Shown: positions 6,846 through 13,808 of the stretch, piece by piece | Position numbering within the stretch: position 1 is the first letter of the stretch | How the letters are laid out: every line of letters starts with the position of its first letter | From: Acaryochloris marina S15 | Lineage (GTDB): Bacteria > Cyanobacteriota > Cyanobacteriia > Thermosynechococcales > Thermosynechococcaceae | Direction: 5' to 3' | NCBI RefSeq assembly: GCF_018336915.1 | Contig: NZ_CP064923.1 | Span: forward strand, 2,130,001 to 2,162,000 | Length of the DNA: 32,000 bases | Program-made: the position numbers and the translations under genes | Notes under the pieces: generated by a model | What the model was told of the DNA's origin: nothing | Databases searched by the model: none | The model's input: only the letters and a program-made list of their open reading frames with translations

Positions 6846-9800
6846 CTAGGCTGAAGTGCTTTTTGCAGGGATAGCAGCAGGTTGCGGGAAACAGATTTGG
6901 AAGGATGTCCCTGATTCTCGGTTGACGGTTAGGTTTCCTGAAATCTGTCGAGTCAAGGTTTTTACCATTCGCAATCCCAGGGTTTTGGAATGGGTGAAGG
7001 ATACCTGCTCGGGCATTCCGATCCCATTGTCGGTAACCGTTAGTGTGATCTCTGATTCGGGTTGTTCCAGGATATGGATGGTGATTATTCCACTACTTTG
7101 TTCTGGAAAGGCATGTTTGAGGGCATTGGAAACCAATTCGTTGATAATTAGGCCACAGGGGACTGCGGTATCAATGTCGAGATAGATATTGGCAATCCCA
7201 ATGTTGATCTGAGTGAGGCTGACTCTAGAGCGATAGGAACGCAAGAGGTTGTTCGTTAACTCTTTGACGTAAGTTTCTAGATTGATTTTGGAAAGATTTT
7301 TAGACTGGTAGAGATTCTCATGGACTAATGCCATGGATTTTACTCGATTTTGGCTCTCCTGCATCACTTCTGAAATATTAGTGTCAGGGTTTGCCTGAGT
7401 TTGAAGATTGAGCAAGCTACAAATGACCTGCAAGTTATTTTTGACTCGGTGATGAATCTCTTGTAGCATCACACTTTTTTCGGCCAGAGATTCAGATAGC
7501 TGCTGCTCAGAGACTTTGCGAGCACTGATATTTTGGATCTGAGTAATAAAGTGGAGGGGAAGGCCATTATCCTGGCAGACCAAGGAGGCACTGAGCAAAA
7601 TCCAAACGTCATGCCCTTGTTTGTGGATATATCTTTTTTCCGTATGGTAATTGTTAATTTCTCCTGTCAGCAGTTGCTCCGCTGATTTTAGGTCTAAAGC
7701 TAAATCATCTGGATGGGTAATGTCTTGGAACGTCATGGAGAGTAATTCAGCTTCTGAGTAGCCGACGATGTTGCAGAGGGACTCATTGGCCTTGAGCCAT
7801 TGACCGGCGGGTGAAATCAGGGCCATGCCAATCGCAGCTTGCTCAAAGGCGAGGCGAAAGCGTTCTTCACTTTCGCTGAGGGCGACTTCAATGCGATTTC
7901 GTTCTGTGACATCCACTGACACCGCCAGGGTACGAATAATGTTGCCGCTGGTATCTCGTTCTGCGATCGCAGACAACAATACATCAATCAACTCGCCATT
8001 TTTCTTCACCCACTGGTAAGGGATATCTCGGCAGGCACCCTTTTGAAAATATTGGGGTAGAACGAAATCACGGGCATAGTGTTGGGATGCTGATGTCAGA
8101 AAATCCGTCGAGGCTCGCCCCAACACTTCACTGCGGTCATAGCCCATTTGGGTCAGCCACGTATTACTGACACTGACCACTCTGCCGTCTTGGTCAATCG
8201 AGTGCAGCATGATTGGCGTGTTCTCATAGAGAGACCGATATCGAGCTTCACTAACAATGAGAGCCGTTTTTACCTGAGTCTGCTCACTAATATCTCGCTG
8301 AATCACCAGAATATGGGGGGATACACCGATTTCATCTGTAATCATCGAATAGGCACAATCGACAAACAGAGGCGATCCATCTCGACATCGGAATTCCAGG
8401 GTGTAGCGCCAATGTCCCTCCTTCAGCAAAATTTGCAATAATTGGGTATCAGTTAGGGGAGGAGCCGTAACCCAAAATTGATTTAAAGAACGATTCAAGA
8501 GTTCTGCTTCGGCATATCCCGACTTTTCCAGGACAGCAGTGTTAACTTGTTGAATCATGCCGTGCTTATTCAACACAAAAAGTAAATCTGGCGCAGACTC
8601 AAATAAAGATCGGTATCGATGCTCACTCGCTTGAAAAGCTGCCGTACTGAATTTGACCCGTTCTTCTAGTTCCTGATTGAGCTGTTGGAGCGCGAGTTCT
8701 GTTTGTTTGCGATCGCTAATATCCTCAACCACTGCAATAAAATAGTCAGGCTCTCCTGGAGCTGACGTGGCCAACGAGACCGTAACCTTTCCCCAGAAAA
8801 TAGAGAAGTCTTGGCAAAGGTAACGTTTCTCACGGGAAAAAGAAGACCTTTGGGACAAGATCAATTGTTGAACCAGCCGTTGGTCTTCTTCACGATCATC
8901 CACATGGGTAATATCCAGAAATGAAAGCTGCAACAATTCAGATTGAGAATATTTCAGCAACTCACAAAATCGCTGATTGACGGCGCGAAACCGGCCTTGA
9001 AGACTGACATGGGCAATCCCTACAGCAGCCTGTTCAAACGTTGATTCAAAGTGAGTTTGGCAAGATTGCAGCATCACCGCATCTGCTTCCACCTGATGCT
9101 CTAAAGTGGAATTGAGGGCTTGCAGAAGCTGAATTCTCTCATTTTGGAGCTGATCAACTTGGTCTTGCAAGATCTCTAAAGTCGTATACATATCAGAGCC
9201 ATTCAGCACGGATAGCATATTGCTTTGGGTGAGAACACCTGTTAACTGCCCAGCGGTATCTATCACCACCAGTCGTCTCACATGTAGCTTCTGCATGAAT
9301 TGCTGAGCGTGCCACAGGGTATCTTCAATGGTCAAACATTCTAAGGGACTGCTCATGACTGCCTGGGCCTGGAGAGATTTTAGGTCCAGTTCTAGAGTCT
9401 GATACTGAACAATATCCCTTTCAGTGATAATGCCAATCGGATAAAGAATGGAATCAGCATCTTGAACGTCTGTTTGGACAATCACCACACAGCTAATTTG
9501 ATGGGTGGCCATTATCTCTGCCACTTCCATCACAGAAGTTGAAGGAGAAGCCGTAATCGGTTGGGCATTCATTACTTCATGAACGGCCCGCATTTTCATT
9601 AATGTGCTGGGTTGGAGAGACTTCCGTAATCCCTCGGTTGTTATAACGCCAGTCACATGGGCTTGATCGTCGAGAATGGGGACATGACGAATATGATGTT
9701 GACGAAATAGACTGAGAACATTGAACGCATCCTTTAACTCAGAGGCTGGTAAGGTGATCAAATTCCGAGTCATCACATCAGCGATTTGGACAGCGTCAAA

Positions 9801-12356: not shown

Positions 12357-13808
12357 CTAATAAGAAGGTTGAGGGAAATGGATATTAAATGAGGTGCCAG
12401 TTCCTCGACTAACGGTTAAGGTGCCTGAAATCTGTCGAGTTAGGGTTTTGACCATCCGGAGTCCTAAGGTTTGGGTTTGTTCTACATTGATCTCATGGGG
12501 GAGTCCCATCCCGTTATCGGTAATGGTTAGGGTGATAGACTTTTCTGTGTTCTGAGTGACCTTGACCTTAATTTCTCCGCTCTCCTGGTCGGGAAACGCG
12601 TATTTGAGGGCATTGGAGACCAGTTCATTGATAATTAAGCCGCAAGGCACTGCTGTATCGATGTCGAGGTAGATACTGGCAATGGCAACGTGAATCTTGA
12701 TCTGGCTCATTTTAGAGCGATAGGACCGCAATAGATTGTTGGTTAATTCTCTAACGTAGGTTTCTAGACTGATTTTGGAGAGATTCTGAGATTGATACAG
12801 GTTTTCATGGACTAGGGCCATGGATTTCACTCGATTTTGGCTCTCCTTCATAATCTCAGTGATTTTTGGGTCGGGACTGCCTTGAGTTTGGAGATTAAGC
12901 AAACTACAAATGACCTGTAAGTTGTTTTTGACTCGATGGTGAATCTCTTGCAGCATCACGCTTTTTTCCGCTAGAGAATCTGCGAGCTGTTGTTCGGCAT
13001 ATTTGCGAGCACTAATATCTTTGTGAGTGCCCGACATCCGTTCGGGTGTGCCGTCGGCGTTTCGCTTCACGACTTGGCCGTAGGTCGCCATCCATTGCCA
13101 TTCTCCGGATTTTGTCAGGAATCGATAGTCGTAGGTGTAGGGTTCGCTGTTTTGTAAATGCCTGTCCAGTACCTTGGTAACGCCAGGCTTATCTTCTGGA
13201 TGGATCAAACTTTCCCAAGTACTCACATGGCCAGGAAGTTCCCCCACTTCATAACCCAGCATTTCTTCCCATCGAGGACTGTAGAAGACTTCACCCGTTA
13301 CGATATTCCAATCCCATAAACCATCCCCAGAACCCGAGAGGGCCATTTGCAGTCGTTCTTCGCTCAATTCCAGGGCTTGAGTTCTTTCTTTGACACGCTC
13401 TTCTAGCTGGGCCTTGGCGTGCTCAAGTTCTTCTCGGCTGGGTAAAAGAAGGGCTTGGGGAATAACAGGAATTAGGGCACCTGCTGTGGCTAGTGAAATG
13501 ATGGCTGTGGAGGCCTTAAGTACGCCGGATACCCAATAGATAGGATGCCAGAGTGTCCAGATCTCCATGATATGGGTGAGGCCACAGGTCACAATAAAGG
13601 CCCCAAAGAGCTGAAAAAGCCAGGGATAAGGTAAATCTTTGCGCTGGCGAACAAAGTGGATCAACGCCAGCGGAATTGAAAAATAGGCAATCGCAATTAA
13701 GGCATCCGAAGCAACGTGCAGCCCGACCAAACCAGGGTCCCACAGGTAACAATGCCCATGCGGTATAAGGGCAAAATGAATGAAATGGTCTTGGCTCCCC
13801 CCCGACAT
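12357..13808 (-). CDS. histidine kinase with an ETR1-like ethylene/copper-binding transmembrane domain, PAS, HisKA_2 and HATPase_c
   Basis: Residues 34-80 ([47 protein letters not shown]) align without gaps to Arabidopsis ETR1 24-70 as I recall it, with 29 of 47 identical. This includes the Cu/ethylene ligands: Cys75 (13586-13584) matches ETR1 Cys65 and His79 (13574-13572) matches His69. Three TM helices are followed by a coiled coil, a PAS domain ([22 protein letters not shown]), [13 protein letters not shown] and the ATPase. Confidence 0.85.
   Translation of the reverse strand: [483 protein letters not shown]

Follow-up and report, generated by a model that had tools for sequence, protein, structure and literature searches.

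Two histidine kinases sharing one class of phosphotransfer helix beside a predicted cyclic di-GMP enzyme in Acaryochloris marina S15

Does a single enzyme of cyclic di-GMP (c-di-GMP) turnover answer to two sensor kinases? The question is raised by a three-gene cassette on the minus strand of the Acaryochloris marina S15 chromosome, within a stretch of 32,000 nucleotides (NZ_CP064923.1, positions 2,130,001 to 2,162,000) that is called the window here and whose numbering is used throughout. The first gene (12357-13808) encodes a histidine kinase of 483 amino acids (aa) with ETR1_N, PAS_3, HisKA_2 and HATPase_c domains, referred to as the EBD kinase after its ethylene-binding-type domain (EBD). 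It is separated by only 9 nt (12348-12356) from a response regulator gene (10209-12347, 712 aa) with the architecture REC-PAS-GGDEF-EAL, forming a tightly coupled pair. After a further 108 nt of AT-rich sequence (10101-10208) comes a second kinase gene (6846-10100, 1084 aa), whose product has four CBS domains, four PAS domains, HisKA_2 and HATPase_c and is referred to as the CBS kinase. Domains were assigned with Pfam. A first-pass annotation of this DNA had proposed that both kinases phosphorylate the one regulator, since their phosphotransfer helices are alike; its open reading frame (ORF) coordinates, strand and both gaps proved exact.

The helix in question is the first helix of the dimerization and histidine phosphotransfer (DHp) domain and is 31 aa long. 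In the EBD kinase it covers aa 279-309 (12882-12974, minus strand) and contains the phospho-acceptor His291 within EIHHRVKNN. In the CBS kinase it covers aa 872-902 (7395-7487, minus strand). The peptide was located in both proteins and is identical at 31/31 residues, as had been claimed. Beyond the helix the likeness extends to 77/87 identical residues in the DHp domain and 153/207 in the whole transmitter. The same 31-residue segment was compared in about 480 other HisKA_2 kinases, among them the 142 50%-cluster representatives that came closest when 1.84 billion proteins were searched exhaustively with HMMER. These kinases agree at 16-26/31 positions, most often at 22-23, and only orthologues of the EBD kinase and the CBS kinase reach 27-31/31. 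The 31/31 identity exceeds chance or family background, and in the databases searched the shared DHp class is confined to these two kinase families.

The CBS kinase is a chimera that joins a sensor half of the CBS-PAS-GGDEF-EAL type to a transmitter of the EBD-kinase type. Its CBS domains (about 9201-9878; tandem CBS, Pfam E=1.9e-37) and PAS domains (about 7506-9053) are followed by HisKA_2 (7233-7460) and HATPase_c (6879-7151), all on the minus strand. The full-length architecture occurs in only five 90%-clusters (P0383-P0386 and P0242; 62-96% identity), and the next matches to the full-length protein are CBS-PAS-GGDEF-EAL proteins. Residues 29-614 are 55% identical to one of these, P0389, with higher identity in the CBS region and the first PAS. 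The last PAS (about residues 745-865) is about 55-60% identical to P0389 when counted by eye inside a high-scoring pair of 36% identity. Homology to P0389 ends at ...ISARK-EQQL, which is the PAS/DHp junction. The CBS-kinase transmitter is 72-78% identical to EBD-kinase cores, CBS-kinase cores are 74-82% identical among themselves, and everything else is at most 56% identical. In the representative search of the 1.84 billion proteins the only close relatives of this transmitter were the EBD-kinase cluster and the orthologues of the CBS kinase itself; the higher scores of P0241 and P0243-245 come from the two kinase cores that each contains. The CBS cores are nested inside the clade of 483-aa EBD kinases in a neighbour-joining tree, a placement taken from the identity matrix and not from the support values of the tree.

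The two helices are identical because the CBS kinase carries a copied EBD-kinase transmitter, a point missing from the first-pass annotation. Since the pair of EBD kinase and regulator is far more widespread than the CBS kinase, the copying would have run from the EBD-kinase transmitter onto an imported CBS-PAS array. An origin in situ from a neighbouring CBS-PAS-GGDEF-EAL gene is unsupported, the closest such protein, P0389, being encoded in an unrelated context. One more core of this kind lies outside the window. P0122 (Acaryochloris marina, 200 aa) is a HisKA_2 core without a sensor, its first residue lying three positions ahead of the phospho-acceptor His. It shares 67% identity with each window core and 65-69% with CBS-kinase cores generally, and is probably the remnant of a third copy of the transmitter.

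The identity of the helices is not the product of recent gene conversion. The 31 helix codons carry 12 synonymous and 0 non-synonymous differences (synonymous divergence, dS, about 1.4; non-synonymous divergence, dN, 0), and the two kinase cores are only about 75% identical at the DNA level, which rules that explanation out. Concerted evolution of the cores within a genome finds little support, since the CBS core of the window shares 74% identity with the EBD core of the same cassette and 72-76% with those of other lineages. The sole hint of such a process is the P0242/P0010 pair (80%). Between the two kinases dN/dS is 0.034 in the DHp domain and 0.22 in the ATP-binding (CA) domain. Given the absence of replacement changes at this dS and the low dN/dS of the DHp domain, the helix has been held constant by purifying selection over a long divergence.

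Gene order was compared in ten orthologous lineages (the window together with L090, L001, L086, L087, L088, L085, L002/3, L004, L092 and L093), whose EBD-kinase orthologues span 64-98% identity. The REC-PAS-GGDEF-EAL gene directly follows the EBD kinase in 10/10 lineages, always on the same strand and between flanks that are otherwise unrelated. The two genes overlap by 4 nt at one extreme and lie 47 nt apart at the other. The EBD kinase and the regulator are a conserved cognate two-gene pair. The CBS kinase is present in 4/10 lineages: the window with L090 (also L091), L001, L086, and L088, where it is a contig-end fragment matching the N-terminus of P0242. It is restricted to the Acaryochloris-like clade of the window, and every CBS-kinase orthologue with readable context directly follows the regulator gene. 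The first-pass annotation had named co-conservation of all three genes as a check on its proposal, and its absence as a ground for rejecting it; the pair is kept and the trio is not. L087, an orthologue at 80%, has the same flanks as the window (glyoxalase upstream; DUF4258, solute-binding protein and Ser/Thr kinase downstream) and lacks the CBS kinase. In L085 a DUF5682 gene comes next after the pair instead of the CBS kinase.

A different CBS gene follows the pair in L002/L003, a metagenome-assembled genome of the Leptolyngbyaceae. It lies at 13790-15187 on the plus strand of that sequence and encodes a 465-aa protein with four CBS domains and GGDEF. Orthology with the CBS kinase was rejected, the CBS regions being only 32% identical. 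The gene may be an independent recruitment beside the same pair, or its position may be a coincidence.

What would the regulator do? It consists of REC (11961-12293; Response_reg, E=1.6e-19), PAS (11559-11900), GGDEF (11049-11519, E=3e-46) and EAL (10272-10985, E=3e-81), all on the minus strand. A regular-expression search found RPTD-5 residues-GGDEF, EALTR and DDFGTG intact. In 9/9 GGDEF-EAL regulators checked (8 orthologues and the more distant L021) RPTDTVARFGGDEF, EALTR and DDFGTG were found, the RxxD I-site included. DxDxFKxxND, VNLS, EITE, KVD, EGIE and QGYYF are also present, as read from the translation. The motif checks agree with the earlier statement that every GGDEF, I-site and EAL catalytic motif is retained, and the regulator is predicted to have full catalytic capacity, both to make and to break c-di-GMP. 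Its REC domain has an acidic pocket (E23/D24), the phospho-Asp D68, T96 and K118 in the translation, and these are kept across orthologues. In sequence the protein belongs with the bifunctional GGDEF-EAL response regulators, in which case phosphorylation is predicted to control its activity. Pfam detected no further receiver domain within the 32-kb window.

The EBD kinase begins with an ethylene/copper-binding-type membrane domain (ETR1_N, PF25487; aa 27-120, 13449-13730, minus strand). The match is strong (E=7.5e-42; 142 bits, cutoff 27) and covers profile positions 2-95 of 97. A PAS_3 domain (aa 174-262, 13023-13289, E=2e-26) leads into the transmitter (12366-12947), which is composed of HisKA_2 (aa 288-363) and HATPase_c (aa 391-481), again on the minus strand. 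For the two kinases of the cassette the HisKA_2 matches have E=3.5e-30 and 1.5e-28 and the HATPase_c matches 2e-14 and 1e-14. The H-box (H-R-x-K-N-x-L), DNGxG and GLGLRMV motifs are present in both in the alignment. Both group with the HisKA_2 family (PF07568), and autophosphorylation is predicted for each. The N-terminus of the EBD kinase depends on the gene model. NCBI models in Acaryochloris (P0503-P0505, 457 aa) begin 26 residues after the ATG at 13808 and so lose the N-terminal PHGHC(Y/F)LW (13731-13808, minus strand), a motif that is invariant or nearly so in an alignment of ETR1_N-HisKA_2 kinases (A2). The longer ORF of 483 aa is probably the true gene model.

Read from the translation, D35, C75-x3-H79 and K98 of the EBD kinase are the equivalents of D25, C65, H69 and K91 of AtETR1, and alignment A2 shows each of them as invariant or conserved to at least 90%. 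In AtETR1, Asp25, Cys65 and His69 serve Cu(I)/ethylene binding and Lys91 couples binding to helix III (PMC10266040). The key residues of AzoEtr1 are numbered as they are here, D35/C75/H79/K98 (PMC11819568). The EBD kinase thus has the sequence hallmarks of ETR1-type ethylene-binding domain proteins, and ethylene binding itself is predicted. Might the domain report copper status, redox or another small hydrophobic ligand instead, with the c-di-GMP system otherwise the same? The ETR1-type domain binds ethylene via a Cu(I) cofactor (PMC10266040), sequence features do not discriminate the physiological signal, and Acaryochloris is marine or epiphytic, with no ethylene biology documented in the literature searched. 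We consider this alternative somewhat unlikely, as all four residues are conserved and all bacterial proteins of the type that have been tested (SynEtr1, AzoEtr1 and Geitlerinema cells) bind ethylene saturably.

Links between the ethylene-type domain and c-di-GMP extend to deeper homologues. Among the matches listed is the Microcystaceae locus L021, where the gene for an ETR1_N-PAS-PAS-HisKA_2 kinase precedes one for REC-PAS-GGDEF-EAL. Four Nostoc/Tolypothrix (Nostocales) loci among them (L005, L007, L008 and L017) have ETR1_N-PAS-(PAS)-HisKA_2 followed by a REC-PAS-HisKA/HATPase protein. The REC and PAS of these Nostocales proteins are 56% and 49% identical to those of the window regulator, and their output is a HisKA kinase. 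The helix-1 region of REC appears to differ between regulators of the Acaryochloris and Nostoc types in parallel with the differences in the DHp domains of their kinases. The Leptolyngbyaceae locus L006, also among the matches listed, encodes a single protein in which ETR1_N-PAS-PAS is fused to GGDEF-EAL. This fusion is support of the Rosetta-stone type for a functional link between the sensor domain and the turnover of c-di-GMP. In Oscillatoria princeps (L055, 463-21950) these domain types come together in a larger cluster: beside an ETR1_N protein it encodes two CBS-PAS-HisKA_2 kinases of very large size, two REC-GGDEF-EAL proteins and several receivers.

Transcription of the cassette was considered from its spacers. 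The 430 nt upstream of the EBD kinase gene (13809-14238, minus strand) are the presumed promoter region. Directly after the upstream glyoxalase gene a hairpin and T-run, AACCGGG...CCCGGTTTTT, was read by eye at about 14195-14230, and these would separate the cassette from the upstream transcription unit. No terminator-like hairpin was seen in the coding strand of the 108-nt gap. Because the first gap is only 9 nt, the second holds no such hairpin and the glyoxalase gene ends in one, co-transcription of the three genes is plausible. A consensus promoter scan performed no better than on shuffled sequence. Rfam families, including c-di-GMP riboswitches, had no match at the gathering threshold or at E<=1 across the 32-kb window, the 430-nt leader and the gaps.

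These observations suggest how the cassette may work. At its base is an old two-gene two-component system, in which a membrane ETR1-type domain would signal via one PAS to a HisKA_2 transmitter. Ligand binding would change autophosphorylation of the EBD kinase, by analogy with SynEtr1 and AzoEtr1, and the kinase would set the phosphorylation state of Asp68 in REC. Phosphorylation of Asp68 would in turn shift the cyclase/phosphodiesterase balance of the regulator, in either direction, by analogy with Lpl0329 and RavR. In the clade of the window a third gene was gained directly downstream, encoding a soluble kinase made of a CBS4-PAS array and a duplicated DHp+ATPase transmitter. Signals from the membrane (ethylene/copper-type) and from the cytoplasm (CBS/PAS, possibly adenylate or ionic strength) would then meet at a single c-di-GMP enzyme. 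Given a DHp domain of the shared class, a gene that always adjoins the regulator gene and no other receiver in the vicinity, the CBS kinase seems on balance likely to act on the same REC domain as the EBD kinase, as kinase and/or phosphatase. Two sensors probably control one c-di-GMP enzyme. To this extent the many-to-one proposal of the first-pass annotation holds up; what it loses is the co-conserved trio.

Several points weigh against this reading. The CBS kinase is absent from 6/10 lineages (L087, L085, L002/3, L004, L092 and L093), so it is dispensable for the function of the pair, and the bracketing of the regulator by two kinases is a lineage-specific addition and not an ancestral three-part design. 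The DHp helix is nearly invariant among all EBD-kinase orthologues too, and its conservation could stem from a constraint on autophosphorylation or PAS coupling, not from partner choice. Both kinases share the partner-recognition surface, with a role in HisKA_2 specificity that is assumed from work on HisKA. The rules for specificity residues were derived from HisKA and not from HisKA_2, and the notion that DHp determines specificity is an extrapolation here. The 108-nt gap could contain a separate promoter for the CBS kinase. Bootstrap support for the branch point of the CBS cores in the neighbour-joining tree is low.

Some of these points would suit a CBS kinase that is separate, orphan or insulated, signalling to a receiver elsewhere or to none, with its helix kept by structural or catalytic constraint. 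A helix that is near-invariant across all EBD-kinase orthologues is constrained whatever the cause, the three genes are not kept as a trio, and the CBS kinase gene might have a promoter of its own in the 108-nt gap. We nevertheless regard a separate kinase as improbable. All CBS-kinase orthologues seen adjoin the regulator gene, and neither another DHp of the class nor another REC was found nearby. Moreover, dN is 0 over a saturated dS, whereas insulated paralogues usually alter their DHp residues; work by Capra and Laub is said to show that such changes are the norm as paralogues become insulated. The closest solved structure to the EBD-kinase transmitter is EL346 (PDB 4R39/4R3A, E=1.6e-20). 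Hetero-oligomers of the membrane EBD kinase and the soluble CBS kinase, through which the CBS/PAS array would modulate the ethylene-type receptor directly, are very improbable: the DHp domains are near-identical (77/87) and their differences cluster in the helix1-helix2 loop, but this loop varies among orthologues too and so gives no specific signal, and EL346, the closest solved HisKA_2 kinase, is a monomer.

Control of one c-di-GMP enzyme by both kinases of the cassette would have a counterpart elsewhere. In Caulobacter crescentus, two differently regulated kinases, DivJ and PleC, reportedly act on one receiver-bearing diguanylate cyclase, PleD, as a case of many-to-one c-di-GMP control. That system is said to differ from the cassette in that the kinases are of the HisKA type, are encoded at separate loci, oppose each other as kinase and phosphatase and have DivK in common as well, and in that PleD is REC-REC-GGDEF without EAL. 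EL346 belongs to the same HWE/HisKA_2 transmitter family as the kinases of the cassette. It differs in being a soluble LOV kinase of an alphaproteobacterial stress-response network, with remote sequence likeness and with single-domain receivers or PhyR as partners.

Also close in architecture are two known bacterial ethylene receptors. AzoEtr1 of Azospirillum brasilense Sp7, at 525 aa against 483 aa here, likewise combines an ethylene-binding domain at its N-terminus with one PAS and a histidine kinase, and the gene for its response regulator, AzoRR(etr1), lies immediately downstream and is probably co-transcribed (PMC11819568). Its phenotype concerns biofilm and exopolysaccharide, typical c-di-GMP territory. 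AzoRR(etr1) is a 135-aa receiver without an output domain, whereas PAS-GGDEF-EAL is fused to the receiver here; no second kinase is described, and the host is proteobacterial (PMC11819568). SynEtr1 (UirS/PixA, slr1212) of Synechocystis PCC 6803 is a cyanobacterial EBD kinase that performs phosphotransfer to an adjacent regulator, UirR, and integrates light, as summarised in PMC6682694 and PMC11819568. Its second input, a cyanobacteriochrome GAF, is in the same polypeptide and its output is transcription (csiR1/lsiR). In the cassette, by comparison, the second input is a separate kinase, the output a c-di-GMP enzyme and the transmitter HisKA_2.

The predicted control of the regulator resembles that of two known systems. 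In Legionella pneumophila the kinase Lpl0330 phosphorylates the REC-GGDEF-EAL protein Lpl0329 (Lpg0278/Lpg0277), which shifts the balance of cyclase and phosphodiesterase (bioRxiv 10.1101/604611). Phosphorylation shifts the balance of a REC-GGDEF-EAL protein in the RavR system of Xanthomonas as well, to judge from its description in that same report. Unlike the cassette, both have one kinase per regulator, other sensor domains, and neither an ethylene-type domain nor a kinase with a duplicated transmitter. In the searchable literature an EBD receptor kinase paired with a c-di-GMP enzyme was not found, apart from a remark that GeiEtr2 adjoins a diguanylate cyclase gene. A second kinase that arose when a duplicated transmitter was joined to a sensor array of the c-di-GMP type was not found there either. 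It is possible, and we suggest it tentatively, that this is the first pathway from an ethylene receptor to c-di-GMP, with a second energy/PAS input plugged in through transmitter duplication and a CBS-PAS-GGDEF-EAL sensor array. Each element of the cassette belongs to a known family. The analysis establishes the gene anatomy, the intact motifs, the patterns of conservation and selection and the chimeric origin of the CBS kinase; phosphotransfer by either kinase, the ligands, co-transcription and the physiological output are inferred.

The remainder of the window is ordinary chromosome, including a bamA-lpxC-fabZ...lpxA-lpxB cluster and a PAS-GGDEF-EAL-FHA protein. The latter (20663-24250, plus strand, 1195 aa, FHA at the C-terminus) is encoded 7 kb from the cassette, and L001 and L086 have it in the corresponding place. 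Upstream of the cassette are genes for an MFS protein, a glycosyltransferase, an acetyltransferase and the glyoxalase; downstream are those for a DUF4258 protein, a solute-binding protein, a Ser/Thr kinase and an NB-ARC/NACHT protein. The DUF4258 gene (6155-6493, minus strand, 112 aa) always comes after the cassette (L001, L086, L087 and L090). In L086, L087 and L090 the DUF4258 and solute-binding-protein genes are set apart by two more, one for a 90-aa protein and one for a Na/Pi cotransporter; the window and L001 are without these two. The NB-ARC/NACHT-type ATPase (427 aa) and the Ser/Thr protein kinase (385 aa) are adjacent (2362-4810, plus strand) and are kept together in L001, L087 and L090. 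A transposase-like ORF (19421-19954, minus strand; HTH_33/HTH_32/HTH_29) does not appear in the gene lists of the syntenic L001, L086 and L090, and is probably a strain-specific insertion sequence fragment. Between lpxA and fabZ, on the opposite strand, a 516-aa ORF of protein-like composition (26320-27870, plus strand) has no Pfam match.

Bacterial ethylene receptors are known to affect biofilm formation and motility in Synechocystis and Azospirillum. The conserved pair of EBD kinase and regulator, together with the fusion protein of L006, predicts a link from such receptors to c-di-GMP, the usual messenger in biofilm formation, which was not found described in the literature searched. The CBS kinase would be a natural case of wiring a new input into an existing pathway, in which the copied transmitter appears to have been kept in the parental specificity class instead of diverging against cross-talk. 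If this is true, the cassette would represent a natural and datable rewiring of a pathway by transmitter duplication without insulation, and relatives of the L087 type, which have the pair without the CBS kinase, would serve as built-in controls.

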